Positions 3,360 through 58,450 of a DNA stretch of 64,000 nt are shown one piece after another. The stretch's first letter is position 1. Each line of letters begins with the position of its first letter. The translations under genes and the position numbers were made by a program. Under the pieces are notes generated by a model. That model was not told the DNA's origin, made no database searches, and saw only the letters and a program-made list of their open reading frames with translations. Source of the stretch: Nannocystis sp. RBIL2. Lineage in GTDB: Bacteria > Myxococcota_A > Polyangia > Nannocystales > Nannocystaceae. Location of the stretch: the NCBI RefSeq assembly GCF_026626745.1, contig NZ_JAPNJW010000001.1, forward strand, positions 716,311 to 780,310. The letters are read 5' to 3'.

Positions 3360-4619
3360 GTGCACGCCCGCGATCCCGAGCTCTCCGCCGCCGACCCTGA
3401 GATCTTCGCGCTGATCGAGCAGGAGGACGCGCGCCAGCGCGACAGCCTGCGCCTCATCGCCAGCGAGAATTACGTGTCGAAGGCCGTGCTCGCCGCGACC
3501 GGCACCAGCCTCACCAACAAGTACGCCGAGGGCTACCCGGGCAAGCGCTACTACGAGGGCATGGACTTCGTCGACCCGATCGAGTCGCTGGCCATCGCCC
3601 GCGCGCGCGAGCTGTTCGGGGCCGATCACGCCAACGTCCAGCCCTACAGCGGATCGCCGGCCAACCTGGCCGCGCTGCTCGCCCTGTGCCAAACCGGCGA
3701 CACCATCATGGGGCTGGCTCTCCCCGCGGGCGGTCACCTCACCCACGGCTGGAAGGTCAGCGCCACCGGCATCTACTACAAGGCCGTCCAGTACGGCGTC
3801 CGCCCCGACGACCACCGCATCGACCTCGACGAGGTCCGCAGCATCGCGCTCGCCAACCGGCCCAAGCTGATCTGGGTCGGTCACTCGGCCTACCCGCGCC
3901 AGCTCGACTTCGCCGGCTTCGCCGCGATCGCGCGCGAGGTCGGGGCCTACCTCGCGGCCGACATCGCGCACATCGCCGGCCTCGTCGCCGGCGGCGCGCA
4001 CCCGAGCCCCGTGCCGCACGCCGACGTCGTCACCACCACCACGCACAAGACGCTCCGCGGCCCGCGCGGCGGCCTGATCCTCAGCAAGGCCGCGCACGCG
4101 GCCGCGATCGACAAGGCAGTATTCCCCGGCCTGCAGGGCGGCCCGCACTGCCACACCACAGCCGCCAAGGCAGTCGCCTTCCGCGAGGCGCTGCAGCCGA
4201 GCTTCCGCGACTACGCCCACCAGATCGTCGCCAACGCCCAGGCCCTCGCCGAGGCCCTCATCGCCCGCGGCCACGTCCTCGTGTCCGGCGGCACCGACAA
4301 CCACCTGCTGCTCGTCGATCTGACGCCCACCGGCCAGGGCGGCCGCCACGTCGCGCGCGTGCTCAACCGCTGCGGCATCGAGCTCAACGCCAACGCCATC
4401 CCGTTCGACCCGCGCAAGCCGTTCGATCCCTCGGGCCTGCGCATCGGCCTGGCCGCCATCACCTCGCGCGGCATCGAGACCCACCACATGCCCGTCGTCG
4501 CCGACCTGATCGCCGACGGCATCGCCCTCGCCGTCGAGAACGCCGACGACGCCCGCTGCGAGGTCCACCGCGGCCGCGTGCGCGAGTTCCTGCGCGCCTT
4601 CCCGGCCCCCGGCCTCTGA
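3360..4619 (+). CDS. glyA: serine hydroxymethyltransferase
   Basis: 419 aa with the canonical SHMT N-terminus (IASENYVSKAVLAATGTSLTNKYAEGYPGKRYY) and the HLTHG segment. Confidence 0.93.
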   Translation: MHARDPELSAADPEIFALIEQEDARQRDSLRLIASENYVSKAVLAATGTSLTNKYAEGYPGKRYYEGMDFVDPIESLAIARARELFGADHANVQPYSGSPANLAALLALCQTGDTIMGLALPAGGHLTHGWKVSATGIYYKAVQYGVRPDDHRIDLDEVRSIALANRPKLIWVGHSAYPRQLDFAGFAAIAREVGAYLAADIAHIAGLVAGGAHPSPVPHADVVTTTTHKTLRGPRGGLILSKAAHAAAIDKAVFPGLQGGPHCHTTAAKAVAFREALQPSFRDYAHQIVANAQALAEALIARGHVLVSGGTDNHLLLVDLTPTGQGGRHVARVLNRCGIELNANAIPFDPRKPFDPSGLRIGLAAITSRGIETHHMPVVADLIADGIALAVENADDARCEVHRGRVREFLRAFPAPGL

Positions 4620-4643: not shown

Positions 4644-5825
4644 ATGCAGCCGTACCCCATCACTGCCATGGCCCTGTGCAACGGCATGGGCGACAGCACC
4701 GCCGCCGTGCTCGCCGCCTTGCGTGCCGGTCGCTCCGGCCTCGGCCCGTGCCCCGCCGAGTTCGAGCTCGACGCGGTCGTCGGCGCCATCCCGACCCCGC
4801 TGCCGTCGCTGCCCGGCTTCCTCGGCCCGGTCCGCGACACCCGGCAGGCGCGGATCGCCGCGGTCGCCCTGGCCGAGCTGCAGGCCCCGCTGGACCGCGC
4901 GCGCGCCCGCTGGGGTTCGGACCGCGTCGCCATCGTCCTCGGCACCAGCACCGGCGGCATCGAGGCCAGCGAGACCGCCTACGCCCACGCGCAGGCCCAC
5001 GGCGGCGCCCTCCCGGCCGCCTACGACGTCGAGACCTCGCACGCCCTCGACGCCGTCCTGCACGTCGCCCGCGTCCTCGGCGGCGGCCTCGGCGGCCCGG
5101 CCTACGTCGTCTCGACCGCCTGCTCCTCTTCCGCCAAGGTGTTCGCCTCGGCCCAGCGGCTGCTCGCCGCCGGCCTGTGCGACGCGGTCCTGGTCGGCGG
5201 CGTCGACAGCCTGTGCCGCCTCACCGTGCGCGGCTTCGCCGGCCTCGAGGTCCTGTCCTCGCGGCCATGTCGTCCGTTCTCGCGCGAGCGGGCCGGCATC
5301 AACATCGGCGAGGGCGCCGCGCTGCTCCTGGTCGAACGGACAGGTGACGGCCCGGCCCGCCTGCTCGGCGTCGGCGAGAGCTCCGACGCCTACCACATGA
5401 CGAGCCCGCACCCCGAGGGCCTCGGCGCGCGCATGGCGATGGAGCGCGCGCTCCAGCACGCCGGCCTTTCCGCCGCCGACGTCGACCACGTCAACGCCCA
5501 CGGCACCGGCACCAAGCAGAACGACAGCATGGAGAGCGCGGCGATCCGGGCGGTGTTCGCCGGGGCCCCTGCGCCCGCGGTGGTCGCCACCAAGGGCTAC
5601 ACCGGGCACATGCTCGGGGCCGCGGGCGCCACCGAGGTCGCCTTCGTCATCGACGCCATCGCCGGCGGCTACCTGCCCGCCAGCGTCGGCGCCGACCCGC
5701 TCGACGACACCCTCGCGGTCGACGTGGTCACCGCCCGCCGCGACGTCCCCACCCGCGCCGCGCTGAGCAACTCGTTCGCCTTCGGCGGCAGCAACTGCAG
5801 CGTCCTCGTCGGAGGCCCGGCATGA
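4644..5825 (+). CDS. beta-ketoacyl-ACP synthase (KAS I/II-like; ApeO-like ketosynthase)
   Basis: 393 aa with active-site Cys in STACSSS, two His motifs (HMTSP, NAHGTGT) and C-terminal NSFAFGGSN. Its stop originally overlapped the next gene start. Confidence 0.85.
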   Translation: MQPYPITAMALCNGMGDSTAAVLAALRAGRSGLGPCPAEFELDAVVGAIPTPLPSLPGFLGPVRDTRQARIAAVALAELQAPLDRARARWGSDRVAIVLGTSTGGIEASETAYAHAQAHGGALPAAYDVETSHALDAVLHVARVLGGGLGGPAYVVSTACSSSAKVFASAQRLLAAGLCDAVLVGGVDSLCRLTVRGFAGLEVLSSRPCRPFSRERAGINIGEGAALLLVERTGDGPARLLGVGESSDAYHMTSPHPEGLGARMAMERALQHAGLSAADVDHVNAHGTGTKQNDSMESAAIRAVFAGAPAPAVVATKGYTGHMLGAAGATEVAFVIDAIAGGYLPASVGADPLDDTLAVDVVTARRDVPTRAALSNSFAFGGSNCSVLVGGPA

Positions 5826-5832
5826 GCGCCTG

Positions 5833-5896
5833 CGCTTCCAGACATGTTCATCGGGACATGTCCCGATGTTCATCCTGCCCGCTGCCCGCGGCCCGC
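5833..5896. mobile_element. about 64-bp CATG-palindrome element inserted at the KS/CLF gene junction, flanked by 23-bp direct repeats (CGTCGGAGGCCCGGCATGAGCGC)
   Basis: Direct repeat copies lie at about 5810-5832 and 5896-5918. Each copy contains the ATGA stop/start overlap; the insert carries GACATGTTCATCGGGACATGTCCCGATGTTCATC. Confidence 0.6.
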
Positions 5897-5910
5897 GTCG
5901 GAGGCCCGGC

Positions 5911-6714
5911 ATGAGCGCGCTCGCCTTCGCCGTCCGCGGCCTCGGGTTCTGGACCCCCGGCTACCCCGACCTCGCCGCCTGGCGGGCCCGGCCCGACACC
6001 TGGCCCGAAGGACAGGCGCCTCCGACCGAGCCGGCCGCCCCGAAGGCCGAGCTGCTGCCACCGATGATGCGGCGGCGCACCAGCCTGCTCACCCGCATGG
6101 CCGCCGAGGTGGCCGCCCAGGCGCTGCAGGACGGCGGCGTCGACCGGGCCGCGGCCACCCTCGTGTACGGCTCCGTCTACGGCGAGATCCGCACCACCCT
6201 CGACCTCCTCGCCGCCCTGCTCGTCCCCGGCGAGCCGCTGTCGCCGACCAAGTTCCACAACAGCGTCCACAACACGGCGGCCGGCTACGTCTCGATCGCC
6301 ACCGGCAACCGGGCCGGCAACGCCGCCCTGTCAGCCGGCCTCTCGACCCTCGCCATGGGCCTCGTCGAGTGCGCCGCCCTCGTGGCCGCCGGCGAGGGCG
6401 ACGTGGTGCTCGTGCTCGCCGAGGAGCCGCTGCCCGAGCCGCTGGCCGCCGGCCGCCGCTGGGACCCGTTCGCCGCCGCCTTCGCCCTTTCGGCGCCTGT
6501 CCCCGGCGACATGCCCATGAGGACATGTCGCCTCGAACATGGCGCGAATGACATGCTCCCCGCGCCACGTCCGGTCCCGGCCGCCCTGGCCGCCAACCCG
6601 TGCGCCGCCGCGCTCGCGCTGGTCGAGGCGCTGGCCGCCGGCGCCCCGGCGCGGATCGCCCTCGAGCCGCACCTCGCGGTCGGCTGGCAGTGCGCGCTCG
6701 GAGCCGGGGCATGA
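5911..6714 (+). CDS. KS-like chain-length-factor-type protein (Ketoacyl-synt_2 family, lacks active-site Cys)
   Basis: About 267 aa starting MSALAFAVRGLGFWTP; carries a KS N-terminal-domain-like signature (FHNSVHNTAAGYVSIATG). Its TGA overlaps the next ATG. It contains an in-frame CATG-repeat insertion at about 6507-6561. Confidence 0.7.
   Translation: MSALAFAVRGLGFWTPGYPDLAAWRARPDTWPEGQAPPTEPAAPKAELLPPMMRRRTSLLTRMAAEVAAQALQDGGVDRAAATLVYGSVYGEIRTTLDLLAALLVPGEPLSPTKFHNSVHNTAAGYVSIATGNRAGNAALSAGLSTLAMGLVECAALVAAGEGDVVLVLAEEPLPEPLAAGRRWDPFAAAFALSAPVPGDMPMRTCRLEHGANDMLPAPRPVPAALAANPCAAALALVEALAAGAPARIALEPHLAVGWQCALGAGA
6507..6561 (+). repeat. 4 tandem 14-bp CATG-core units (CGACATGCCCATGAG / GACATGTCGCCTCG / AACATGGCGCGAAT / GACATGCTCC) lying in frame inside the CLF-like CDS
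   Basis: Read directly from the sequence; they encode DMPMRTCRLEHGANDMLP within the protein. Confidence 0.8.
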
Positions 6715-7160
6715 CCGCCGACTTCCCGCCGGTGGCCGAGTTGGTCCCGCAGCGCCCGCCGATGCTGCTGCTCGACGAGGTCGTGGCCGCCGGCGACGAC
6801 GGCATCACCTGCGCCGCGCAGGTCCGCCCCGACAACCTGTTCGTCGTCGACGGCCGGGTCCACGCCTCGGCCCTGCTCGAGTACATGGCCCAAACAATCG
6901 CCGCGTTCGCCGGCCTGCGCGCGCGCGCCGACCATCAGCCGCCCGCGCTCGGCCTGATCGCCGCCTGCCGCAACCTCGAGCTGCACGCCGAGCACCTCGC
7001 CGTCGGCGACCCGCTGCAGATCGTCGCCACCCGCGTGTTCGCCGGCGCCATGGCCGAGTACCGCGCCGCAGTCACGCGCCGCGGCCAGCCGCTGGCCGAG
7101 GCCGTGCTCTCCGTCGTCACCACCGCCCCACCCAGCACCTCCGCAGGGAGCCCCGCATGA
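6711..7160 (+). CDS. hotdog-fold 3-hydroxyacyl-ACP dehydratase (FabA/FabZ/ApeP-like)
   Basis: 149 aa (MTADFPPVAELVPQRPPMLLLDEVV...); the size and motifs are typical of APE/FAS dehydratases. ATGA overlaps occur with both neighbours. Confidence 0.7.
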   Translation: MTADFPPVAELVPQRPPMLLLDEVVAAGDDGITCAAQVRPDNLFVVDGRVHASALLEYMAQTIAAFAGLRARADHQPPALGLIAACRNLELHAEHLAVGDPLQIVATRVFAGAMAEYRAAVTRRGQPLAEAVLSVVTTAPPSTSAGSPA

Positions 7161-7879
7161 AGCCACGCGCGCTCGTCACCGGCGCCAGTCGAGGGATCGG
7201 CGCTGCGATCGCCGAGGCCCTCGCGGCCGCCGGCCACCCCATCATCCTCAACTACCGCAGCGACGACGCGGCCGCCGAGGCCGTCGCCGCCCGGATCCGA
7301 GCCGCCGGCGGCGAGGTCGTCCTCAGCCGCTTCGACGTCGGCGACGACGCGGCCGCCGATGCGGCGATGAACGCCATCCTCGCCGACCCGCGGCCGCTCG
7401 GTGTCCTCGTCAACAACGCCGGGATCGCCCGCGACGCCCCGTTCCCCGCGCTCGAGCGGGCCGACTGGGAAGCTGTCCTTCGGACCAGCCTGGGCGGCTT
7501 CTACAACGTCACCCGCCCGGTGATCATGCCGATGGTGCGGCGCAAGTGGGGCCGGATCATCACCATGAGCTCCGTCTCGGCCCAGCTCGGCAACCGCGGC
7601 CAGGTCGCCTACGCCGCGGCCAAGGCCGGCGTCATCGGCGCGACCAAATCGCTGGCGCTGGAGCTCGCCCGCAAGGGCGTCACAGTCAACGCGGTCTCCC
7701 CCGGCCTCGTCGACACCGACATGATCAAGGACGTCCCGCTCGACCACGTGATGCCGCGGATCCCGGCGCAACGGCTCGGCACCGCCCCCGAGGTCGCCGC
7801 GCTGGTCGCGTTCCTCGCCAGCGACGCCGCCGCGTACATCACCGGTCAGGTGATCGGGATCAACGGCGGCATGGTATGA
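7157..7879 (+). CDS. fabG: 3-oxoacyl-ACP reductase (SDR, FabG-like)
   Basis: 240 aa with TGASRGIG cofactor motif, NNAG, and the catalytic S...YAAAKAG triad spacing. Confidence 0.85.
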   Translation: MKPRALVTGASRGIGAAIAEALAAAGHPIILNYRSDDAAAEAVAARIRAAGGEVVLSRFDVGDDAAADAAMNAILADPRPLGVLVNNAGIARDAPFPALERADWEAVLRTSLGGFYNVTRPVIMPMVRRKWGRIITMSSVSAQLGNRGQVAYAAAKAGVIGATKSLALELARKGVTVNAVSPGLVDTDMIKDVPLDHVMPRIPAQRLGTAPEVAALVAFLASDAAAYITGQVIGINGGMV

Positions 7880-7886
7880 CCCGGCC

Positions 7887-9086
7887 ATGCACGACGTCCT
7901 GATCGTCGGGGCCGGCCCGGCCGGATCGACTGCCGCCAACTTGCTCGCGCAGGCGGGCGTCCGGGCCGTCGCGCTCGACAAGGACGTGTTCCCGCGCTTC
8001 CACATCGGCGAGTCGCTGCTGCCGATCGACCTGCCGATCTTCGCCCGCCTCGGCGTCGCCATGGATCGCACGAGCTGGCAGTTCAAGCAGGGCGCCGAGT
8101 TCATCGACGAGCGCACCGGCGAGTTCGCCTTCTTCAGCTTCGCCGACGGCCTCGAGGGCACGCCCCCGCACGCGTGGCAGGTCGACCGCGCCACCTTCGA
8201 CACCATGCTGTGCGACGTCGCCAGGAGCCGCGGCGCCGACATCCGCTTCGGCGAGCGCGTGCGCGACATCGAGTTCATAGGCGATCACGTCCGCGTCGTC
8301 ACCGACCGCGAGGAGCACCGGGCCCGCTTCCTCCTCGACTGCACCGGCCAGGACGCCATGCTCGGCCGCGGCGCCCGCACGATCGCCCCGCTGCACGAGC
8401 TCGGGCGCGCCGCCGTCTTCTGCCACTTCGACGACCTCTCGCCCGAGGTGTGGGCCGAGCTCGGTGAGCAGGGCAACATCAAGGTCCTGATCGTCGAGGA
8501 CGGCTGGCACTGGCTGATCCCCATGCACGGCGGTCGGCTCAGCGTCGGCCTGGTGAAGTGGCGCGGCAAGCTCGACGACGACGCCTTCGAGGCCGCCCTG
8601 GCCGCCTCGCCGCTGTGCCGCCGGCTCACCGCCGGGGCCACCCGCAGCGCCTCGCGGACGATCCGCAACTGGAGCTACAAGAACACTCGCCCCTCCGGCC
8701 CGCGCTGGGCCTGCGTCGGCGACGCCTGCGCATTCCTCGATCCGGTGTTCTCGTCGGGCGTCTCGCTGGCGATGCTGGGCGCCGAACGGACCGTCGACCT
8801 CCTCGTCCCCGCGCTCGCCGAGGGCCGCGAGGCCGCGGCCGATCTCATGGCCCCGGTGCACGCCACCATGCAGGTCGCCTACGACAGCTTCGAGCAGCTG
8901 ATCCGCCGCTTCTACCACACGCGCCTCGTGTCGCACCTGTTCTTCGCCCGCACGCCCGACCCTCAGCTGCGGCGCGGCCTCATCAGCATGCTCGCGGGCG
9001 ACGTCTGGCGCGACGACAACCCGTTCCAGGACATGCTGCGAAGCTCTCGCGTGCAGCCGCAGCGGGTCGCCGCGCCGAGCGAGTGA
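7887..9086 (+). CDS. FAD-dependent oxidoreductase (halogenase / geranylgeranyl-reductase-like flavoprotein)
   Basis: 399 aa with an N-terminal GxGxxG dinucleotide fold (DVLIVGAGPAGSTAAN) and DxxxxGxxS-like segments. It is the last gene of the KS/CLF/DH/KR cassette. Confidence 0.75.
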   Translation: MHDVLIVGAGPAGSTAANLLAQAGVRAVALDKDVFPRFHIGESLLPIDLPIFARLGVAMDRTSWQFKQGAEFIDERTGEFAFFSFADGLEGTPPHAWQVDRATFDTMLCDVARSRGADIRFGERVRDIEFIGDHVRVVTDREEHRARFLLDCTGQDAMLGRGARTIAPLHELGRAAVFCHFDDLSPEVWAELGEQGNIKVLIVEDGWHWLIPMHGGRLSVGLVKWRGKLDDDAFEAALAASPLCRRLTAGATRSASRTIRNWSYKNTRPSGPRWACVGDACAFLDPVFSSGVSLAMLGAERTVDLLVPALAEGREAAADLMAPVHATMQVAYDSFEQLIRRFYHTRLVSHLFFARTPDPQLRRGLISMLAGDVWRDDNPFQDMLRSSRVQPQRVAAPSE

Positions 9087-47284: not shown

Positions 47285-47962
47285 ATGACACAAACCAACA
47301 CGGCAGCATTCGTCCGCGTCGAAGGCATCCTGCTCGCCCGCGGCGTGCTCAGCGCGGCGGCCTATCTGGCCGCCAACGCCAAGAAGTTCGGTGAGCGGGC
47401 CGTCCGCCTCGGCCTCGTCGGCCTCGCCGCCCCGGTCCACCGCCTGCTCGGGCAGACCGACCGCGCGCTGGCCCACCGCCTCGCCCACCTCGCCATCCGC
47501 GGCATGAGCCAGGACCGCGTCGAGGTCCTCTGCGAGGAGTACGCCGAGGATGTCCTGAAGGACACGATTTTGGATCAGGGCCTCGAGCTGCTCAAGCGGC
47601 TGCAGGCCGAGGGGCGGCGGGTCGTGCTGCTGTCGGACAGCATCGAGCCGATCATGAAGCCGCTCGCGCGCCACCTCAAGCACTACGACGAGCTCGTCTA
47701 CAACAAGATCGAGTTCGAGGACGGCGAGGCCACCGGCAAGCTGCTCGACCCGGTCATCGGCTCGAACGTCGGCGGCCGCTGGCTCGACGACTACGCCGCC
47801 GCGCACGACTTCGAGCTCTCGCGTTGCGCCGCCTACGGCGCCCACGGCCCGGACATGCTGCTGCTCTCGCGCGTCGGCAAGCCGTGCGCAGTCAACCCCG
47901 ACTTCGTCCTGCGCCGCAGCGCCAAGGACGCTGACTGGCCGATCATCGATTATCGCGACTGA
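47285..47962 (+). CDS. HAD-IB family hydrolase (phosphoserine-phosphatase-like)
   Basis: 225 aa with HAD-IB architecture; first gene of the lipid operon. Confidence 0.65.
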   Translation: MTQTNTAAFVRVEGILLARGVLSAAAYLAANAKKFGERAVRLGLVGLAAPVHRLLGQTDRALAHRLAHLAIRGMSQDRVEVLCEEYAEDVLKDTILDQGLELLKRLQAEGRRVVLLSDSIEPIMKPLARHLKHYDELVYNKIEFEDGEATGKLLDPVIGSNVGGRWLDDYAAAHDFELSRCAAYGAHGPDMLLLSRVGKPCAVNPDFVLRRSAKDADWPIIDYRD

Positions 47963-47990
47963 CCTTGGGGACAGGAACCGGAGGACACCC

Positions 47991-49676
47991 GTGAACACGC
48001 CGATCTCGATCAAGCACAGCTACGCCGGCCGCCATGTCCTGCTCACCGGGGTCACCGGCTTCCTCGGCAAGGTCTGGCTGGCGATGGTCCTGCAGTACGT
48101 GCCGGACGTCGGCAAGATCTACGTGCTCACGCGCAAGAAGGCGCTGCGCCCCGCCGCCGACCGGTTCGAGCGCCAGGTCCAGACCTCGCCGTGCTTCCGC
48201 CCGCTGCACGAGAAGTACGGCGCCGACATGAGCCGCTTCATCAGCGAGCGGATCGAGGTCGTCTCCGGCGACGTCTCGCAGCCCGACATGGGCGTCGAGG
48301 ACCCGGCGGTGCTGGCTCGCCTGCGCCGCGACATCGACCTCGTGATCAACTGCGCCGGCCTCGTCGACTTCGACCCCGACCTGCGCGAGGCCATGACGAC
48401 CAACGTCGAGGGCGCCCGCAACGCCGCCAACTTCGTCGCCGCCTGCGACAAGGCGGTGCTGCTGCACATCTCGACCTGCTACGTCACCGGCAAGAAGAAC
48501 GGCCTCATCCCCGAGGTCATCCGCCCCGACCTCTCGCCCGACGGCCAGCCGTTCGACGTCGAGGTCGAGTGCGCCGAGGTCCAGGTCAGCATCGACGCCA
48601 TCCTCGCCGAGCACGAGTCGCCGGAGATGGACAAGCGCGCCCACGACGACGCGGTCAAGCAGATCCGCGACAAGGGCGGCGACGAGAACAACGCGATGCT
48701 GGTGCGCAACACCGCCCGCCGGATCAAGCGCAACCTCTTGAAGGACGCGATGGTCGCCGAGGGCCAGCGCCGCGCCGGCCGCTGGGGCTTCACCAACATC
48801 TACACGTACACCAAGAACATGGCCGAGGCGTGGATCGCCCGCCGCCTCGATCCCGGCCGGTGGAGCATGTTCCGCCCCGCGATCGTCGAGAGCTCCATGA
48901 GCTACCCGTTCCCCGGGTGGAACCAGGGCTTCAACACCTGCGGCCCGCTGAGCTACGCGCTCGGCAGCTGGTTCCGCCACCTGCCGTGCAAGCAGGGCAA
49001 CCCCTTCGACATCATCCCCGTCGACTACGTCTGCCGCGGCATGACCGTCGCCGGCGCCGCGCTGATGCGGGGCGAGCACGCGCCGGTCTACCAGTGCGGC
49101 AGCTCGGACCTGAACCTCCTCACCATCGACCGCGCCGTCGAGCTGGTCGCGCTGGCCCACCGCAAGCACCTGCGCACCCGCGGCGACACCACCCTCGACC
49201 GCGTCGTCAAGTCGCGCTGGGACGCGATCGCCGTCACGCCCGACCACCCGATGCGGATCGAGAACATCCGCAAGATGACCGAGTCGGTCGACGAGTGGCT
49301 GCGCGACCCGCCGAAGGGCTGGCCGGAGTTCCTCCGCCGCCGCCTCGGCGACCTCGTCGAGCACACCGAGGACGCGCTCGAGTCGATCGACAAGATCGAG
49401 CGCATGTGCGAGCTCTACCTGCCGTTCATCCACGACAATTACTTCGCGTTCGTCACCCGCAACCTGCTGCGGCACCCCGTCGTCGAGCCCGAGTGGGACT
49501 GCGACCCGCGCAGCATCGACTGGCGCCACTACTGGATCGACGTCCACATCCCCGGGCTTCGCAAGTGGTGCTTCCCGCTGTTCGAGAACAAGACCCCCGA
49601 GAGCTACGCCCCGCGCCACCCCTTCCGCTTGCGCTCGCCCGAGGCCGCGCCCGCGCCCCACGCCGAGGTCGTCTGA
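47991..49676 (+). CDS. fatty acyl-CoA/ACP reductase (NAD_binding_4 plus FAR C-terminal domain)
   Basis: 561 aa with Rossmann motif [12 protein letters not shown], catalytic YTYTK, and a C-terminal 'sterile' FAR_C-like region. Confidence 0.8.
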
Positions 49677-49680
49677 CACC

Positions 49681-50826
<1,146 letters not shown>

Positions 50827-50836
50827 CCCTTCGAAC

Positions 50837-52318
50837 ATGTCCAAGAGCGCACCCGTCAAGAAGACCACCAGCAAGATCTGGGACAAGGTCAAGGACGTCG
50901 TCGACCCCGACCGCGCCCTCCAGGCCACCGTCGCCGCCGCCATCGAGGGCGTCGCCGTCCGCAACGTCCTCGGCATGGCGCCCGAGACGTGGAAGCCGGG
51001 CAAGCCGCTCAAGCTGCTGCTGGCCGGCTACGTCGGCACGCGCAACACCGGCGCCGACGTCCGCGTCGAGGAGATGATCCGCCAGCTGCGCCACGTCGTC
51101 GGCGACGACCAGCTCGAGCTGACGATCATGACCGTCGATCCCAAGTTGACGCGCGGCTACTTCCGCGCCGTCCACCAGATCGAGCTGCCGGCGGTGTTCC
51201 CCAAGTTCATCGCCACCGAGTGCCCGAAGCACCACGGCGTCATCGCTTGCGAGGGCTCGATGTTCAAGTCGAAGTTCTCGAGCGCGCTGACCTGCTTCAT
51301 GGCCGGCGCCCTCGGGCTCGCCAACGCCGAGAACAAGGTCAGCGTCGGCTACGGCGCCGAGGCCGGCAACATGACCCCGGCGCTCCGCGACTTCGTGCGC
51401 GACGCCTGCAAGAAGTCGCTCGTCATCTGCCGCAACGAGCCCTCGCGCAAGGTCCTCGGCGAGCTCGGCATCCGCACCACCTCTGGGGCCGACACCGCCT
51501 GGACCTTCGACCCCGCTCCGCTGTCCAGGGGCGCCCAGCTGCTGCGCGACGCCGGCTGGGACGGCCGCCAGAAGGTCCTCGTCGTCTGCCCGATCAACCC
51601 GTTCTGGTGGCCGGTCAAGCCCGACCTGCTCAAGTACGCCGCCTACAAGCTCGGCGGGCAGTACAAGCACGAGCACTACAGCGCCTTCTACTTCCACCAC
51701 CACAGCGAAGCGTCCGACAAGAAGTACAACGCGTACATCCAGGCCCTGGCCGACGGTGTCAACGCGTTCGCCGCGGAGCGCGAGTTCTTCACCATCCTCG
51801 TCGGCATGGAGCAGCTCGACCGCCACGCCTGCGAGGACCTGCAGCCGCGCCTCGATCGCGGCGGCGCGCTGTTCGTCAGCGACGAGCACGACATGTACGA
51901 CCTCGTCAGCGTGCTGCGTAACTGCAGCATGATGATTAGTTCGCGCTTCCACGCGATCGTCACCTCGATGCCCGGCCTCGTGCCCTCCGCCGGCGTCACC
52001 ATGGACGAGCGGATCCGCAACCTCATGAACGATCGCGGCCACCCGGACATGTTCTTCGAGGTCGACGAGGAGGGCCTCGGCGACAAGCTGCTGCACACCC
52101 TGCGCCGCCTGTGGCGCGACGCCGAGGGCATCAGCGCCGACATCGCCCGCGCCGTCCCGGCCCAGCTGAAGCTCATGGGTCAGATGGGCATCGACTTCAT
52201 GGACGAGGTCGTCCGCGTCTACCCCGAGTTCCCGCGCCGCGACCTCCCGCGCACCTGGGAAGCCCACCTGCCGCCGCTGCCCGCCAACGTGCAGCGCCTG
52301 CTGGAGCGCCACGCATGA
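50837..52318 (+). CDS. polysaccharide pyruvyl transferase family protein
   Basis: 493 aa with PS_pyruv_trans-type motifs (GYVGTRNTGAD ... ISSRFHAIV). Confidence 0.7.
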   Translation: MSKSAPVKKTTSKIWDKVKDVVDPDRALQATVAAAIEGVAVRNVLGMAPETWKPGKPLKLLLAGYVGTRNTGADVRVEEMIRQLRHVVGDDQLELTIMTVDPKLTRGYFRAVHQIELPAVFPKFIATECPKHHGVIACEGSMFKSKFSSALTCFMAGALGLANAENKVSVGYGAEAGNMTPALRDFVRDACKKSLVICRNEPSRKVLGELGIRTTSGADTAWTFDPAPLSRGAQLLRDAGWDGRQKVLVVCPINPFWWPVKPDLLKYAAYKLGGQYKHEHYSAFYFHHHSEASDKKYNAYIQALADGVNAFAAEREFFTILVGMEQLDRHACEDLQPRLDRGGALFVSDEHDMYDLVSVLRNCSMMISSRFHAIVTSMPGLVPSAGVTMDERIRNLMNDRGHPDMFFEVDEEGLGDKLLHTLRRLWRDAEGISADIARAVPAQLKLMGQMGIDFMDEVVRVYPEFPRRDLPRTWEAHLPPLPANVQRLLERHA

Positions 52319-53949
52319 GCGACAACTTCCTCGAAGTCATCCACGCGGCGGTCCAGAAGACCCGCGAGGATCAGCTCCTCATCGAGCTCCACGGCAAGGA
52401 GCGCCGGCCGACCTCGGCCGCGCAGCTGCTGCACCTCGTGGCCCACGCGCGCGGCTTCCTGCGCAGCCGCGGCGTCAAGCCGGGCGACCGCGTCGCCCTG
52501 CTCGCGCCCAACTCGGCCCGCTGGGTCGCCGCCGACCTCGCCATCCTGTTCGAGGGCGCGATCGTCGTCCCGCTCTACAGCCGCCAGGATCCGAAGGAGC
52601 TGGCGGTCATGGTCCGCGACTGCGGCCCGGTGCTCGTCATCGCCGACGGCCCCGAGCTCGCCGCCGGCCTGCGCAATGCGTGGCCCGAGCACTGCCCGAT
52701 CGAGGACATGCTCGACGTCCTCGCCGGCGAGCCCGTGCACGAGCCGCCGCGCCCGGTCGCGCCGACCGACCCGGTCACCATCATCTACACCTCCGGCACC
52801 AGCGGCGAGCCCAAGGGCGTCGTCCTCACCCGCGCCAACGTCGACTACATGCTGCCGCAGACCCGCGGCAGCGTCGACCGCATCACCGGCGGCAAGCGGG
52901 CCGACAAGGTGTTCCACTTCCTGCCGTTCTGCTTCGCCGGCTCGCGCGTCATGCTGTGGACGCAGCTGTACCGCGGCAACCCGCTGCTGCTGTCGACCGA
53001 CCTGCAGAACCTCGTCGCCGAGATGGGCGCCGCCGACCCGCACTACTACCTCAACGTGCCGGCGGTGCTCGAGCGGATCAAGAACGGCGTCGGCAAGAAG
53101 ATCGGCGAGCGCGGCGGCATCGCCCTCGCCCTCTACCACCGCGGCCAGGCCGCCTTCCGCGCCGTGCGCGAGGGCAAGGCTGGCCTTTTGGACAGGCTCA
53201 CTCTGGCCGCCGCCAAGAAGCTGGTCTTCAGCAAGATCAAGCAGCAGATCGGCCCCAGCCTCGAGTTCCTGATCTGCGGCTCGGCGGCGCTGGCCGAGGA
53301 GACGCAGTGGTGGTTCGAGCTGGTCGGCGTGCAGGTCTACCAGGTCTACGGCCTGACCGAGACCACCGCGATCGTCACCATGGACATCCCCGGCGGCGTG
53401 CGCCCCGGCTACGTCGGCCACGCGATCCAGGGCTGCGAGATCAAGATCTCCGACGAGGGTGAGCTGCTGGTGCGCGGCCCGGGCATCTTCGCCGGCTACT
53501 GGGGCCGCGAGCAGGCCACCGCCGAGGCGATCAAGGACGGCTGGTTCCACACCGGCGACCAGGGCGACCTCGACGCCACCGGCAACGTCCGCATCATCGG
53601 CCGCGTCAAGAACATCCTCGTCCCCGAGTCGGGCCACAACATCGCCCCTGAGCCGATCGAGGAGAAGTTCTTGGCCGCCTGCCCCAAGGCCGAGCAGTGC
53701 ATGCTGGTCGGCCACGCGCGGCCGTTCCTCGGCATCATCGTCCCCGGCGACGTGCCCAAGGACGCCATCGACGCCGCGCTCGAGATCGTCAACGCCAGCG
53801 TCCCGCACTACAAGAAGGTCCGCGCCTTCATCCGCGTCGCCGAGCCGTTCACGATCGAGAACGGCCTCCTCACCGCCAACCAGAAGCTGCGCCGCCGCGC
53901 CGTCGAGCAGCGCTACCGCGCCGAGATCGACAAGGCCTACGCGTCATGA
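52315..53949 (+). CDS. AMP-dependent synthetase/ligase (long-chain fatty-acid-CoA ligase-like)
   Basis: AMP-binding motifs (IIYTSGTSGEPKGV, YGLTET, GWFHTGDQG, RVKNIL). Both its start and its end form ATGA overlaps with the neighbouring genes. Confidence 0.8.
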   Translation: MSDNFLEVIHAAVQKTREDQLLIELHGKERRPTSAAQLLHLVAHARGFLRSRGVKPGDRVALLAPNSARWVAADLAILFEGAIVVPLYSRQDPKELAVMVRDCGPVLVIADGPELAAGLRNAWPEHCPIEDMLDVLAGEPVHEPPRPVAPTDPVTIIYTSGTSGEPKGVVLTRANVDYMLPQTRGSVDRITGGKRADKVFHFLPFCFAGSRVMLWTQLYRGNPLLLSTDLQNLVAEMGAADPHYYLNVPAVLERIKNGVGKKIGERGGIALALYHRGQAAFRAVREGKAGLLDRLTLAAAKKLVFSKIKQQIGPSLEFLICGSAALAEETQWWFELVGVQVYQVYGLTETTAIVTMDIPGGVRPGYVGHAIQGCEIKISDEGELLVRGPGIFAGYWGREQATAEAIKDGWFHTGDQGDLDATGNVRIIGRVKNILVPESGHNIAPEPIEEKFLAACPKAEQCMLVGHARPFLGIIVPGDVPKDAIDAALEIVNASVPHYKKVRAFIRVAEPFTIENGLLTANQKLRRRAVEQRYRAEIDKAYAS

Positions 53950-54719
53950 TCGACTGGACCTACAGCGAAGGCGTGTACGAGCTGACCCTCGCCACGCCGC
54001 CGTGCAACGAGATCGGCACGGCCATGCTCGCCGATCTGCGCCGCTTCCTCGACCAGATCGATCGTGACGCGCACACCCTGATCCTGCGCAGCGGCCTGCG
54101 CCAGGGCTTCTGCGCCGGCGCCGACCTGCGCGAGCTCTACCGCGGCCTGAGCGACGCGCCGAAGGATCAGCACGGGCCGCAGATCCGCCAGTTCATCGAC
54201 GCCATCCACGGCGTCATGGACGACCTCGACATGCTGCCGCTGACCACCGTCGGCGTCGTCCACGGCGTCTGCTTCGGCGGCGGCTTCGAGCTCGCCCTCA
54301 CCTGCGACGTCCTGATCGCCGAGAAGACCGCGCGCTTCTGCTTCCCCGAGCTGCGCCTCGGCATCATCCCCGGCTTCGGCGGCATCCCGCGGCTGCGCCG
54401 CGACGTCGGCAACGGCCTCATCCGCGACCTCCTGCTCAGCGGCCGCAGCATCAACGCCAAGAAGGCGCTGGCGGCCGGCCTCGTCAGCCAGGTCCTCGCC
54501 AGCGGCGAAGGCATCACCGCCGCGCGCGCGCTCGCGGCCCAGACCGCCAAGTTCGACAAGACCGCGCGCGAGGCCGCCAAGGCCTTCATCAAGAAGCTCC
54601 CGAAGGACGAGCTGCTCGCCGAGCGCGAGCTGTTCGTCCGCCTCGCCGAGGGCCCGGCGCTGCTGGCCGCCCTCAAGCGCTTCGTCGAGTCCACCGACCT
54701 GAGACCGTACCTGCCATGA
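53946..54719 (+). CDS. enoyl-CoA hydratase/isomerase (crotonase fold)
   Basis: 257 aa with oxyanion-hole segments (GFCAGADL, VHGVCFGGGFELAL). Confidence 0.8.
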   Translation: MIDWTYSEGVYELTLATPPCNEIGTAMLADLRRFLDQIDRDAHTLILRSGLRQGFCAGADLRELYRGLSDAPKDQHGPQIRQFIDAIHGVMDDLDMLPLTTVGVVHGVCFGGGFELALTCDVLIAEKTARFCFPELRLGIIPGFGGIPRLRRDVGNGLIRDLLLSGRSINAKKALAAGLVSQVLASGEGITAARALAAQTAKFDKTAREAAKAFIKKLPKDELLAERELFVRLAEGPALLAALKRFVESTDLRPYLP

Positions 54720-54949
54720 GCACCTCCCTCGACACCCTCATCCGTCTCGCCGCCAAGCGCTTCGGCGCCGACCCGGCCCAGCTCCGCGCCGAGGACGACC
54801 TGTTCGAGCGCCTCGGCATCGACAGCTTCCAGGCCGTCGAGCTCATCTCGGACGTCGAGGACGAGTTCGACGTCGAGCTGCCCGACTACGAGCTCCAGGG
54901 GATCAAGACCTTCGCCGCCCTGGCGCAGAAGATCGACGCGAGGCGCTAG
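54716..54949 (+). CDS. acyl carrier protein
   Basis: 77 aa with the phosphopantetheine-attachment Ser in LGIDSFQAVEL. Confidence 0.8.
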   Translation: MSTSLDTLIRLAAKRFGADPAQLRAEDDLFERLGIDSFQAVELISDVEDEFDVELPDYELQGIKTFAALAQKIDARR

Positions 54950-56665
54950 ATGCTCGACCTGGGAAAGCTGTCCTGCCTCGGCGAGGCGCTGCGTGACGCC
55001 ACCATCACGTACAAGAGCCGGACCGCGCTGATCGAGGCCGATCGCCACCGCGAGAACTCGCGGCACACCTTCGCCGAGCTGCGGGCCGCGGCCGAGCGGT
55101 TCGCCGGCGCCGTCCAGGCCCACGGCTTCGGCCCCGGCGATCGCTGCGCGATCGTCATGCAGAACCAGTCGAAGTGGTTGATCGGCGCCACCGGGGCGCT
55201 GTGGGCCGGCGCCGTGCTGGTCCCGATCGACTACAAGCTGACCGCGCCCGAGCAGCACGCCCTGCTCGCCCACTGCCGCCCGCGCGTCGTCCTCGCCGAA
55301 TGGCCGGCGTGGGACAAGCTGCAGCGCGAAGATCCCTCGATCTTCGAGCGCACCCTCGTCATCGTCACCGAGGCCCCCGAGGGCGCCGGCATCGGCCGCG
55401 CCGTGCGCTGGGAGGACCTGCCCCAAGGAGCAGGTTTCACCTACCACGCCCGCGCCCGCGAGGACGTCGCCTGCATCGTCTACTCCTCGGGCACCGGCGG
55501 CGCCGCCAAAGGCTGCCAGCTCACCCACGCCAACTACCTCGCCCAGGCCGAGACCCTCGGCAACCTCTACCCGCTGAGCGAGGGCGATCGTTACTTCTCG
55601 ATCCTCCCGACCAACCACGCCATCGACTTCATGTGCGGCTTCTTGCTCGCGCTGATGATGGGCGGCGCGGTCGTCCACCAGCGCACCCTGCGGCCGGCCT
55701 ACCTGGCCAGCACCATGAAGCGCTACGGCATCACCCACATGGCGCTGGTGCCCACGATCCTCAAGACCCTCGAGAAGAAGATCAAAGAGAAGATCGCCGA
55801 GCTACCGAAGTGGCAGCGGCTCGTGCTAGGCGGCCTGATGGACCTCAACGAGTACGCCACCCGCCAGGCGCCCGACCACCGGCTCAGCAAGACCCTGCTC
55901 GCCCCGATCCACGAGTACTTCGGCGGCAAGCTGCGGCTCATGTTCTGCGGCGGCGCCTTCGTCGACCGCACGAGCGCCGAGTACTTCAACCGCCTCGGCC
56001 TGCCGGTCGCCATCGGCTACGGCCTCACCGAGGCCGGCACCGTCCTCACCGTCAACGACCTCAAGCCGTTCCGCGGCGACAGCGTCGGCAAGGCGGTCGA
56101 GGGCACCGAGCTCGAGCTGCGCGACGTCAACGACGCCGGCGTCGGCGAGGTGTGGGTGCGCGGGCCCACCGTCATGCTCGGCTACCTCGACGCGCCCGAG
56201 CTGACCCGCGAGGCGATCGTCGACGGCTGGCTGCGCACCGGCGACCTCGGCAGCATCGACGCCGCCGGGCACCTCAAGCTGTTCGGTCGCACCAAGAACA
56301 TGATCGTCACCGAGGGCGGCAAGAACGTCTACCCCGAGGACATCGAGGCCGCCTTCGGCGACATCGACGACTGCGAGGAGTTCTGCGTGTTCGCGGCCAA
56401 CTTCATCTGGCCGACCGGCAAGATGACCGACGAGCAGCTCATCGTCGTCGTGCGGCCCAAGTCGGGCCTCGACGAGGCCGGCCGCGCCGCCCTCATCGAC
56501 GCCTTCCGCAGGCGCAACCTCCGGCTCGCCGACTACAAGCGGATCTCCGCCTACGTGCTGTGGGACCGCGAATTCCCGCGCACCGCCTCGCAGAAGATCA
56601 AGCGCGACCCGCTCGCCCGCGAGCTCAAGCCGCTCGGCCGCGACGGCGCCCTGCGGGAGCTGTGA
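54950..56665 (+). CDS. AMP-dependent synthetase/ligase (acyl-CoA or acyl-ACP synthetase-like)
   Basis: 571 aa with AMP-binding motifs (IVYSSGTGGAAKG, YGLTEAG, GWLRTGDLG, RTKNMI). Confidence 0.8.
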   Translation: MLDLGKLSCLGEALRDATITYKSRTALIEADRHRENSRHTFAELRAAAERFAGAVQAHGFGPGDRCAIVMQNQSKWLIGATGALWAGAVLVPIDYKLTAPEQHALLAHCRPRVVLAEWPAWDKLQREDPSIFERTLVIVTEAPEGAGIGRAVRWEDLPQGAGFTYHARAREDVACIVYSSGTGGAAKGCQLTHANYLAQAETLGNLYPLSEGDRYFSILPTNHAIDFMCGFLLALMMGGAVVHQRTLRPAYLASTMKRYGITHMALVPTILKTLEKKIKEKIAELPKWQRLVLGGLMDLNEYATRQAPDHRLSKTLLAPIHEYFGGKLRLMFCGGAFVDRTSAEYFNRLGLPVAIGYGLTEAGTVLTVNDLKPFRGDSVGKAVEGTELELRDVNDAGVGEVWVRGPTVMLGYLDAPELTREAIVDGWLRTGDLGSIDAAGHLKLFGRTKNMIVTEGGKNVYPEDIEAAFGDIDDCEEFCVFAANFIWPTGKMTDEQLIVVVRPKSGLDEAGRAALIDAFRRRNLRLADYKRISAYVLWDREFPRTASQKIKRDPLARELKPLGRDGALREL

Positions 56666-56742
56666 ACCGCCGCGGCCCCACCGCCCCCGCTCCGCGGCCA
56701 TCCGCCCCTCCACGGCCCTTCGGGGCCTGATAGCATGCCCGC

Positions 56743-57651
56743 ATGCAAGATCCGGCCACCCTCCTCGCAGTCGTCAACCCAGCCGCCGGCGGCGGCGTGT
56801 GCGGCAAGCGGGCGCCCGCGGTCGTCGACCGGCTGCGGCAGTCGGGCATCAAAGTCGACGTCGTCGAGACGCGCGCCGCCGGTCAGGCCACCGAGCTCGC
56901 GCGCGAGGCCGTCGCGGCCGGCCGGCGCCACTTCATCGCCGTCGGCGGCGACGGCACCAGCTACGAGCTGATCAACGGCATCTTCTCCGGCGCGCTGCCG
57001 GAGGGCGAGCGCCCGTCGCTCGGCATGCTGCCCCTCGGGACAGGTAACTCCTTCCTGCGCGACTTCACCGATCAGGGGGCCGAGTACGCGATCGAGGCGA
57101 TCATCGCCGGCAAGACCCGGCCGTGCGACCTCGTCCGTTGCACGCACACCCGCGGCGTCCTGCACTTCATCAACATCTTCAGCATCGGCTTTGTCGCCGA
57201 CGTCGGCGCCACCCGCAACCGCAACTTCTCGGCGCTGGGCGAGTTCGGCTACACGCTGAGCACCGTGCTGCGGGTGGCCGCGCTGCGGCCCTACACCTTC
57301 CCGATGCAGATCGACGGTCACCCCGAGGACCGCGAGCCGCTGACCTTCCTCTCGTTCAACAACAGCCGCTTCACCGGCGGCAAGATGATGATGGCGCCCG
57401 ACGCCAACACGCGCGACGGCCTGCTCGACATCATCCGGGTCGGTCGCCTCGGCCGCGTCGGCCTGCTGCGCACCTTCCCCAAGATCTTCAGCGGCACGCA
57501 CGTGCAGCACCCGGCCGTGCGCTGCTACCAGGCCCCCGGCCTCGACCTCCGCCTCGCCGAGGACATCGACGTCATGGTCGACGGCGAGATGATCAAGATA
57601 AACCCGCGCCGGCTGGAGGTCGTCCCCGGCGCGCTCGACGTCCGGACGTGA
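56743..57651 (+). CDS. diacylglycerol-kinase-catalytic-domain lipid kinase (YegS/BmrU-like)
   Basis: 302 aa with the DAGK_cat signature (VGGDGTSYELINGI ... LPLGTGNSF). Confidence 0.75.
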   Translation: MQDPATLLAVVNPAAGGGVCGKRAPAVVDRLRQSGIKVDVVETRAAGQATELAREAVAAGRRHFIAVGGDGTSYELINGIFSGALPEGERPSLGMLPLGTGNSFLRDFTDQGAEYAIEAIIAGKTRPCDLVRCTHTRGVLHFINIFSIGFVADVGATRNRNFSALGEFGYTLSTVLRVAALRPYTFPMQIDGHPEDREPLTFLSFNNSRFTGGKMMMAPDANTRDGLLDIIRVGRLGRVGLLRTFPKIFSGTHVQHPAVRCYQAPGLDLRLAEDIDVMVDGEMIKINPRRLEVVPGALDVRT

Positions 57652-57655
57652 TGTA

Positions 57656-58450
57656 ATGGTGTTCAAGATCCTCAAGAAGGCAGCTCAGGTCGTCTACTCG
57701 GCCGCGGTGTGGACCGTCTCGTTCGCGTGGATGGGCGCCGTCGCCGTCACGTGGGCCGCGGTGTCGACGGTGGTCCCGTCGCGCAAGACCCACAACTACA
57801 TCGGCGGGCCCGGCATGGGCGCGGTCCTCAAGATCACCCTGTCGCAGGTCGAGGTCATCTACGACCCCGACTTCGACCCCGAGCGGCGCGGCGTGTTCAT
57901 GATGAATCACGTCAACCTGCTCGACGCGCACGCCGCCTGCGCCTCGATCCCGCACGCCTTCTGCGGCCTGATGAACGCCTGGCAGTTCAAGATCCCGATG
58001 TACGGCTGGATCATGAAGCTGGCCGACGGCATCCCGGTGCCGGACGGCAAGAACCGCTACCGCGCCATCGCCGAGGCCGCGCGCGACCGGGCCAAGAAGG
58101 GCATCTCGATCCTCGCCTTCCCGGAGGCCCACCGCACGCTCGACGGCAAGGTCGCCGAGTTCAAGCGCGGCGTGTTCTGGATGGCCCGCATCGCCGGCCT
58201 CCCGGTCATTCCGCTGGCCACGCACGGCATGTACGATCTGATGCACAAGGGCTCGTACCTGCTCACCCCGACCAAGATCACGATCTATGTCGGCGCCCCG
58301 ATCGAGACGAAGGGCCTGTCCGACGCCGAGCTGGCGGAGGTCATGGAGCGCGCCCACAAGATCATCGCCGACTTCGCGGAGCGCGGCATCGTGCCCGGCC
58401 GCGCCGCGCCGATCCCCTCCGACGCCACGCCGATCGCCTCCGGCGCCTGA
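57656..58450 (+). CDS. 1-acyl-sn-glycerol-3-phosphate acyltransferase (PlsC/AGPAT family)
   Basis: N-terminal TM segment; HX4D motif (NHVNLLD) and FPEAHRT motif. Confidence 0.8.
   Translation: MVFKILKKAAQVVYSAAVWTVSFAWMGAVAVTWAAVSTVVPSRKTHNYIGGPGMGAVLKITLSQVEVIYDPDFDPERRGVFMMNHVNLLDAHAACASIPHAFCGLMNAWQFKIPMYGWIMKLADGIPVPDGKNRYRAIAEAARDRAKKGISILAFPEAHRTLDGKVAEFKRGVFWMARIAGLPVIPLATHGMYDLMHKGSYLLTPTKITIYVGAPIETKGLSDAELAEVMERAHKIIADFAERGIVPGRAAPIPSDATPIASGA

Follow-up and report, generated by a model that had tools for sequence, protein, structure and literature searches.

A glyA-linked cassette of Nannocystis sp. RBIL2 as the probable chain-extending and halogenating half of an aryl polyene pathway split over two loci

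Aryl polyenes (APEs) are the products of the most widespread gene-cluster family of Gram-negative bacteria. Those described in the Gammaproteobacteria Xenorhabdus doucetiae, Escherichia coli CFT073 and Acinetobacter baumannii are built by proteins named ApeA-R. The structures 7f28 and 7f27 are those of A. baumannii ApeO-ApeC and ApeR, respectively (PMC8358021). In vitro, ApeO-ApeC alone gave a fully elongated polyene, ApeR only raising the throughput (PMC8358021), and deletion of apeR in E. coli did not abolish formation of the mature APE lipid (PMC8253772). APE clusters have also been reported, at the antiSMASH level, in Enhygromyxa salina and Plesiocystis pacifica (PMC6226438). In the literature searched, no paper on a Nannocystis APE or on a split APE cluster was found. 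The present analysis concerns a 64-kb stretch of Nannocystis sp. RBIL2 DNA (hereafter ‘the window’; G+C content 70–75%), in which five genes lying close together on the + strand (4644–9086), just downstream of glyA, form a compact type II cassette. Six proteins of the window are identical in sequence to RBIL2 entries (MCY1063683-88), the contig concerned being 6.34 Mb long. The cassette is predicted to be the elongation and halogenation half of an APE pathway encoded at two loci, a reading to which a probability of about 0.8 is given.

Genes were called from coding potential based on the G+C content of third codon positions, and from the translations of open reading frames (ORFs); all calls were on the + strand. 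Families were assigned using Pfam and NCBIfam profiles with their cut-offs, and HMMER searches were run against all solved structures in the Protein Data Bank (PDB). The cassette was thus resolved into the following features:

4644..5825, + strand: ApeO-type elongating ketosynthase (KS), 393 aa; PF00109 and PF02801, NF006618
5826..5910, + strand: spacer between the KS and chain-length factor (CLF) genes, the product of an 89-nt insertion at a former ATGA overlap
5911..6714, + strand: ApeC-type CLF, 267 aa; PF13723, 138 bits
6711..7160, + strand: ApeP-family hotdog dehydratase (DH) subunit, 149 aa; PF22817, 39 bits (cut-off 27)
7157..7879, + strand: ApeQ-like 3-oxoacyl-ACP reductase (ketoreductase, KR; a FabG-type short-chain dehydrogenase/reductase, SDR), 240 aa; adh_short_C2, 201 bits; NF004200
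7887..9086, + strand: flavin-dependent halogenase-like protein, 399 aa; PF04820 (Trp_halogenase), 100 bits; FAD_binding_3

The KS passed the NF006618 model (440 bits, cut-off 407) and failed fabF TIGR03150 (224 bits, cut-off 494), FabB NF005935 (127 bits, cut-off 630) and every other FabB/FabF equivalog cut-off. Its top matches among the solved structures were ApeO chains (7f28_B, 253 bits; 6qsp_A, 249 bits), with FabF structures scoring 146–170 bits, FabB ∼107 bits, and ApeR 110 bits (7f27) and 108 bits (4ewg). A housekeeping FabF or FabB was therefore rejected as the identity of this KS, given the missed cut-offs and the position of FabF/FabB structures far below ApeO; the grouping with FabF that the preliminary description of the window had named as the observation that would speak against an aryl-polyene-like cassette was thus not found. 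HMMER alignments to solved ketosynthases showed the Cys160/His286/His322 triad to be complete, plus Lys317. The CLF corresponds to the N-terminal thiolase half only (267 versus 393 aa), the C-terminal half with both His residues being absent, and a local alignment placed its Leu144 at the position of KS Cys160, showing the nucleophilic Cys to be missing. The only structures matching the CLF at any strength were the ApeC chains 7f28_A and 6qsp_B. In NCBI it is labelled as a ‘beta-ketoacyl synthase chain length factor’, and some entries for the DH bear the label ‘ApeP family dehydratase’.

The best solved match of the DH was ApeP (6qsr_B). The KR passed the generic FabG model NF004200 (326 bits, cut-off 273) and remained below the cut-offs of fabG_rel TIGR01831 (292 bits) and FlxB (273 bits, cut-off 340). 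The fifth protein contains the motifs GAGPAG at residues 8–13 (GxGxxG), Lys67 (in FKQGAEF) and W207-H-W-L-I-P212 (WxWxIP), Lys67 aligning with the corresponding Lys of 3nix and of the halogenase 8zop. A GxGxxG motif, a catalytic Lys and a WxWxIP motif together form the diagnostic set of flavin-dependent halogenases; the flavoprotein carries all three, and a halogenating activity is predicted for it. Its first PDB match was the flavoprotein 3nix, which we take to come from Cytophaga hutchinsonii, followed by 8zop, CndH (3e1t), Bmp2 (5buk), PltA (5dbj), CmlS (3i3l) and ChlB4, the halogenases matching at 1e-45 to 1e-30. With the CmlS NCBIfam model it scored 144 bits, far under the cut-off of 900. 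The halogenases CndH, PltA, Bmp2, ChlB4 and CmlS act mostly on substrates tethered to carrier proteins. The preliminary description, made from the letters alone, had proposed an aryl-polyene-type set of a KS with an intact Cys-His-His triad, a CLF-like partner lacking the active Cys, an ApeP-like DH, a FabG-like KR and an FAD protein; the Pfam profiles and alignments bore out each of these five identities, and the closest solved relatives of KS, CLF and DH being ApeO, ApeC and ApeP bore out the type.

The remaining components of an APE pathway were indeed missing from the window, as first described. A tblastn search of the 64 kb with ten companion queries (acyl carrier protein [ACP], a fusion of an adenylating ligase to ApeI [AMP-ligase::ApeI], GT2 glycosyltransferase, acyltransferase, ammonia-lyase, thioesterase, LolA, MMPL, DUF3261 and ApeR) detected no orthologue of any of them. 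The sole matches were those of the ApeR query to the cassette's own KS (31%), and of an E. coli AcpP query to an ACP at 54716.

The companions were found beyond the window, where the preliminary description had suggested looking: every Nannocystis species examined (N. bainbridge, N. pusilla, N. punicea, N. exedens and N. radixulma) has a second, distal locus. This was first found in N. bainbridge through an orthologue of an Enhygromyxa MMPL protein, the survey consisting of an MMPL search of species-representative genomes followed by mapping of the loci by tblastn. Absence of the export half from Nannocystis was considered and rejected: the MMPL search had named cluster representatives only, and a genome scan found the locus in five of five species. 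Its gene order is ACP, unk196, AMP-ligase::ApeI, GT2, acyltransferase, aromatic ammonia-lyase, 4HBT thioesterase, LolA, MMPL and DUF3261, where the ACP has 95 aa and unk196 is a membrane protein of 196 aa. The dedicated ACP, the AasS-like loader, the thioesterase, GT2, acyltransferase and the LolA/MMPL/DUF3261 export set are thus all present at the distal locus of the five species. No KS, CLF, DH or cassette-type KR was found within 10 kb of the MMPL gene in any of them; for four of the five, the only match was to an unrelated SDR (38–39%), encoded upstream of the ACP gene on the minus strand. A KS-less locus of this kind also occurs in a dozen related metagenome-assembled genomes (MAGs).

All five species bearing the distal locus also have the glyA-linked cassette. 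The two lie ∼380 kb apart on one contig in N. radixulma, at 0.1 and 9.97 Mb of a single 11.3-Mb contig in N. exedens, and on two contigs in N. bainbridge. For two MAGs with a stand-alone cassette (loci L002 and L004), the same assembly was found to contain the loading half on a different contig (L050 and L021, respectively). In RBIL2 itself, the distal-locus ammonia-lyase (MCY1069144.1) and the adjacent thioesterase (MCY1069143.1) lie on a separate contig of 6.14 Mb. The lyase belongs to the family of histidine, phenylalanine and tyrosine ammonia-lyases (HAL, PAL and TAL), and has the ASG motif of the 4-methylideneimidazole-5-one (MIO) cofactor at residues 148–150 (N. pusilla, L011 7292–8821, orthologous to MCY1069144.1).

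A more intimate connection between the two loci is suggested by the dehydratase. In 19 aligned ApeP-family sequences, the motif E-x-x-A-Q was invariant (LEYMAQ in the window DH), while no conserved His was found at the position of the FabZ catalytic His. The AMP-ligase fusion of the distal locus, read in N. bainbridge and N. pusilla, ends in a C-terminal domain that matches ApeI (PF22818; 6qsr_A) and contains F-R-G-H-F-x-x-x-P-V-L-P-G-V-A-Q-L: the His motif is present and the Glu absent. In FabZ/FabA-type hotdog dimers, each active site combines the His of one subunit with an acidic residue of the other. Since the window DH offers only the Glu and the distal ApeI only the His, a composite site put together from the products of the two loci would follow, and the window DH is most likely one half of that site, with the distal ApeI domain as the other. 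The ApeI:ApeP (ApeH-ApeP) heterocomplexes cited in PMC8358021 are consistent with such an arrangement. A separate feature of this subunit is its N-terminus (window 6711–6760), where the family motif P-H-x-x-P-M reads P-Q-R-P-P-M in the window, in N. radixulma and in the outgroup locus L008; as judged from the alignment, His has been replaced by Gln in this clade specifically.

Homology with the systems reconstituted from Xenorhabdus and Acinetobacter allows the two sets of genes to be placed in one proposed route. The distal aromatic ammonia-lyase would provide a cinnamate- or coumarate-type acid, which the adenylating half of AMP-ligase::ApeI would load onto the 95-aa distal ACP; a starter of this type would already hold the first C2 extension. 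The KS:CLF heterodimer of the window, of ApeO:ApeC type, would then condense malonyl units repeatedly, the window KR would reduce every β-keto group, and the heteromeric hotdog DH, with the Glu motif from the ApeP-like subunit and the His motif from ApeI, would remove water. No gene resembling an enoyl reductase (ER) was seen in the gene content of the cassette or the distal locus, and with no such step a conjugated polyene would grow. The flavin-dependent halogenase of the window may halogenate the aryl head. The distal thioesterase, GT2 and acyltransferase would serve lipid anchoring of the product, and LolA/MMPL/DUF3261 its export to the outer membrane.

Comparison with relatives shows that the two halves belong together elsewhere. 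The CLF homologues occurred in three kinds of context: stand-alone cassettes, full contiguous clusters, and a xanthomonadin-like cluster (L006). N. radixulma, two MAGs and one contig from a metagenome showed the cassette by itself, beside glyA and one or two genes for fibrinogen-like lipoproteins. The contiguous clusters have the order ACP, AMP-ligase::ApeI, GT2, acyltransferase, lyase, LolA, MMPL, DUF3261, KS, CLF, DH, KR, ApeR, halogenase, and were found in Enhygromyxa (L007/L026 and L018), in Nannocystaceae ST9 (L024) and in five MAG loci (L025, L028, L029, L082 and L083). Matches are missing from this set for the acyltransferase in L018, L025 and L029, and for the lyase and LolA in L018; L082 and L083 begin at the acyltransferase or the lyase, and L029 ends before the halogenase. 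In the cluster of an Enhygromyxa MAG, the acyltransferase is of lipid-A type. The identity of the window proteins to those of the contiguous clusters was 49–61% for KS, 39–53% for CLF, 59–65% for KR and 49–54% for the halogenase. The KS was closest to those of Enhygromyxa and ST9 (57–61% in L018, L024 and L026; 52–59% in the other contiguous loci), and the KR to those of Enhygromyxa, ST9 and L028 (63–65%; 59–63% in the remaining clusters). Halogenase identity was 52–54% in L007, L018, L024, L025, L026, L028 and L082, and 49% in L083. ApeR was found in the contiguous relatives; that of L007 is only 31% identical to the window KS.

Across Myxococcota and Planctomycetota MAGs, the block KS-CLF-DH-KR(-ApeR-halogenase) lies downstream or upstream of the loading/export block, or is inverted with respect to it. 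As far as gene order can tell, it behaves as a movable sub-cluster, which would have been moved right away in the Nannocystis lineage. Among close relatives, strain ILAH1 has identical KS, CLF, DH and KR, and sequence clusters at ≥90% identity include members from N. exedens, N. pusilla, N. punicea and N. bainbridge and, for the halogenase, also from N. radixulma and strain SCPEA4. The CLFs of the latter two are 85% identical to that of the window.

The gene junctions within the cassette had been described as four ATGA stop/start overlaps, which holds, or held ancestrally, for three of the four. True overlaps were found between CLF and DH (6711–6714) and between DH and KR (7157–7160); KR and halogenase are separated by a 7-nt spacer (stop at 7879, start at 7887). 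At the KS/CLF junction, the KS stop lies within an ATGA at 5822–5825, the ATG of which is the ancestral CLF start, and the CLF now starts at 5911, 85 nt further on. The difference is due to the 89-nt insertion, which doubles 26 nt (5804–5829/5893–5918) in such a way that the KS stop, a Shine-Dalgarno-like GGAGG and the ATG of the CLF are all kept, both reading frames remaining intact. N. bainbridge and N. radixulma lack the insertion and have an intact 4-nt overlap; N. exedens has the insertion as well, in a longer form (118-nt spacer). The insertion uncouples the translation of KS and CLF and leaves both genes intact. The predicted RNA fold of the spacer was no better than those of shuffled sequences (z = −1.4). 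A scan for promoters and terminators between 3100 and 9400 detected no promoter-like site and no + strand terminator, none lying between glyA and the KS gene.

The spacer contains a 30-nt palindrome (5844–5873) centred on GGACATGTCC. This palindromic 10-mer has seven copies in the window (at 107, 2478, 5854, 17644, 24519, 24659 and 45515), against 0.03 expected. Each copy is centred in a longer palindrome, perfect or nearly so, that is specific to its locus; most lie shortly after the end of a gene or in the gap between two convergent ones. Many more copies were seen in other Nannocystis loci (including L010, L011 and L013), some of them in coding DNA, where they read as low-complexity inserts of the ‘RDMS’ type in the linker of AMP-ligase::ApeI. 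These palindromes look like a genus-wide family of repetitive extragenic palindromic (REP)-like elements or regulator sites.

The genes on either side of the cassette are:

3360..4619, + strand: glyA (serine hydroxymethyltransferase); PF00464, 500 bits; NF000586, 564 bits
9301–10482, + strand: lipoprotein with a LAGC lipobox, cysteine-rich DUF4215/myxo-disulfide repeats and a fibrinogen-like GGGWT domain

The gap between glyA and the KS gene is 24 nt, and both have the same orientation. In the outgroup loci L002, L004 and L008, glyA lies downstream of the cassette on the opposite strand; the linkage is therefore one of synteny rather than a conserved operon, and glyA represents context, not a member of the pathway. 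In all relatives examined, including those with an inverted glyA, the cassette is followed by one or two GGGWT lipoprotein genes. In the same three outgroups, a conserved protein of 372–389 aa is encoded directly upstream of the KS gene (L002 7674–8792, L004 7617–8786 and L008 7308–8441). It has an N-terminal CxxC...CxxC motif resembling a zinc ribbon and no Pfam match. No counterpart was found in the window or in the Nannocystis species, where glyA stands in its place.

Several findings weigh against a two-locus APE pathway in RBIL2. The distal locus of this strain is known through two of its proteins only, the lyase and the thioesterase. No ApeR-like KS was found within 10 kb of either half at any Nannocystis locus, no genome-wide search for ApeR having been made; the in vitro results with ApeO-ApeC and the phenotype of the E. 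coli ΔapeR strain make an ApeR-less set compatible with function. The outgroups L002 and L004 keep a four-gene cassette with no halogenase, which is therefore not obligatory. The selectivity residues of the distal lyase are F-H (in NLMRFHGCG), a non-canonical pair. Known patterns are H-L for TAL, F-L for PAL and S-H for HAL; since F-H is none of these, the starter is uncertain. Finally, the cassette keeps its place next to glyA and a lipoprotein gene in different genera, which might point to some further or other role.

This last point leads to the alternative that survives best, although it is unlikely: an autonomous type II cassette that would draw on the housekeeping pool of AcpP and malonyl-ACP, independently of the distal APE locus, and make another product (for instance, a short polyene or a fatty acid bearing double bonds or a halogen), possibly tied to the lipoprotein. 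The fixed chromosomal site by glyA and a fibrinogen-like lipoprotein gene in several genera would fit such a role, as would the loss of the halogenase in some lineages, and data from E. coli suggest that AcpP can partly substitute for the APE ACP (PMC8253772). The family of the cassette DH, however, has no conserved catalytic His, the complementary partner being encoded only at the distal locus. Further, wherever a stand-alone cassette was seen, the genome also contained a KS-less loading/export locus, the orthologues in sister genera lie within one contiguous APE cluster, and the neighbouring lipoprotein evolves near neutrality (dN/dS, the ratio of nonsynonymous to synonymous substitution rates, 0.58–0.89), unlike a tightly coupled partner. 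A related and quite improbable idea is that the cassette might act in trans as an elongation module for other carrier-protein pathways or for AcpP, giving a second, non-APE polyene or halogenated lipid, with the split DH site as a device for regulatory coupling.

That the cassette might be a decaying remnant of a broken-up ancestral APE cluster, still readable yet non-functional, is very unlikely in view of the selection acting on it. Pairwise comparison of the window genes with those of N. exedens, N. bainbridge and N. radixulma gave dN/dS values of 0.14–0.23 for KS, 0.27–0.35 for CLF, 0.33–0.55 for DH, 0.06–0.15 for KR and 0.17–0.27 for the halogenase. The value for glyA was 0.15–0.18, so that constraint on KS, KR and halogenase is similar to that on this neighbour; that for the lipoprotein gene was the near-neutral one given above. 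All five genes are thus under purifying selection (0.06–0.55), which makes a decaying relic unlikely, and at least eight strains or species of Nannocystis retain intact copies of the five ORFs. Decay could be read into the broken KS/CLF coupling, the lack of ApeR within 10 kb of either half at the Nannocystis loci and the P-H to P-Q change in the DH, but the stop, GGAGG and start survived the insertion in two species, and the catalytic triad of the KS is intact. Least probable of all is a paralogous FabF/FabZ/FabG copy serving bulk fatty-acid synthesis: the KR passes a generic FabG model and no dedicated ACP lies nearby, but the KS is closer to ApeO than to any FabF/FabB structure and fails all their cut-offs, its partner is a Cys-less half-size CLF, and a DH of the ApeP family and a halogenase are attached.

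The ACP at 54716 was also considered as a carrier for the cassette. An ACP profile run on the six-frame translation of the window detected 54716–54949 only, in agreement with the early statement that this is the sole ACP of the window and belongs to a lipid operon:

47345–58450: lipid operon of ten genes, encoding a HAD protein, two thioester-reductase/FAR-like proteins, a CsaB-like pyruvyl-transferase, an acyl ligase, an enoyl-CoA hydratase, the ACP, a second acyl ligase, a YegS-type lipid kinase and an AGPAT

This operon was rejected as a supplier of the cassette, having no APE-type family matches and no orthologue of any protein of the APE loci. The lipid pathway it encodes is unrelated, and the ACP within it is no orthologue of the APE ACP. 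The operon may resemble the ether-lipid genes of myxobacteria.

The two-locus layout resolves what appears to be an orphan cassette, since genome mining of single loci would call either half incomplete. Both loci would be needed together to clone the Nannocystis pigment, the apparent half-site nature of the DH being one concrete reason. If the pathway operates as proposed, it would provide a natural example of an APE system lacking ApeR, in line with the published in vitro and knockout data (PMC8358021, PMC8253772), and soil myxobacteria would gain a predicted APE chemotype that is halogenated and primed by way of an ammonia-lyase.

In relation to known systems, the likeness to the gammaproteobacterial APE clusters extends to both loci. 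The cassette shares with them a KS:CLF pair of ApeO:ApeC type, an ApeP-family DH, an ApeQ-type KR and the lack of an ER, and the distal locus shares the ACP, the 4HBT thioesterase, GT2, the acyltransferase and the LolA/MMPL/DUF3261 export set; the fusion of the AasS-like ligase to an ApeI DH is as in A. baumannii ApeH. The Nannocystis set differs in that it is divided between two loci separated by distances from hundreds of kb to Mb, in that the CLF gene directly follows that of the KS instead of lying near the start of the cluster, and in having a single ACP where those clusters have two, no ApeR at the two loci and no methyltransferase that could be seen. It adds a putative flavin halogenase and an aromatic ammonia-lyase; the latter makes a cinnamate-type acid a more probable starter than 4-hydroxybenzoate.

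Flexirubin clusters of the Bacteroidota also combine an aryl starter derived from an ammonia-lyase with type II KS, CLF, KR and DH enzymes and optional halogenation, but the Nannocystis KR scores below the FlxB cut-off (273 versus 340), and the lipid-anchoring and export genes are of APE type. No DarA/DarB (dialkylresorcinol) genes turned up in the Nannocystis loci, no search having been aimed at them. The xanthomonadin-type cluster L006 resembles the window in having a KS and a PF13723 CLF followed by a halogenase, together with MMPL, an AMP-ligase and ACPs. It differs in its FkbO/XanB2-type chorismatase and in a 524-aa halogenase only 24% identical to that of the window, its KS and CLF being 39% and 36% identical to the window's. 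An FkbO_Hyg5-like chorismatase was absent from the Pfam matches of the N. bainbridge loading locus, which contained Lyase_aromatic instead.

The clusters of Enhygromyxa, Plesiocystis and ST9 have orthologues throughout and the same terminal order KS-CLF-DH-KR-(ApeR)-halogenase as the window; for Enhygromyxa and ST9, identities were 57–61% for KS, 42–50% for CLF, 43–44% for DH, 63–64% for KR and 53% for the halogenase. In Enhygromyxa and ST9 this block directly follows DUF3261 and includes ApeR, whereas the Nannocystis block stands apart from the loading genes, next to glyA, and has no ApeR, and the Nannocystis loading half has in addition the 196-aa membrane protein and the 4HBT thioesterase. 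By the orthology of every component, the cassette is a member of the APE family, split, lacking ApeR and bearing a predicted halogenase; its genomic arrangement is unusual, the Nannocystis case being otherwise an ordinary member.

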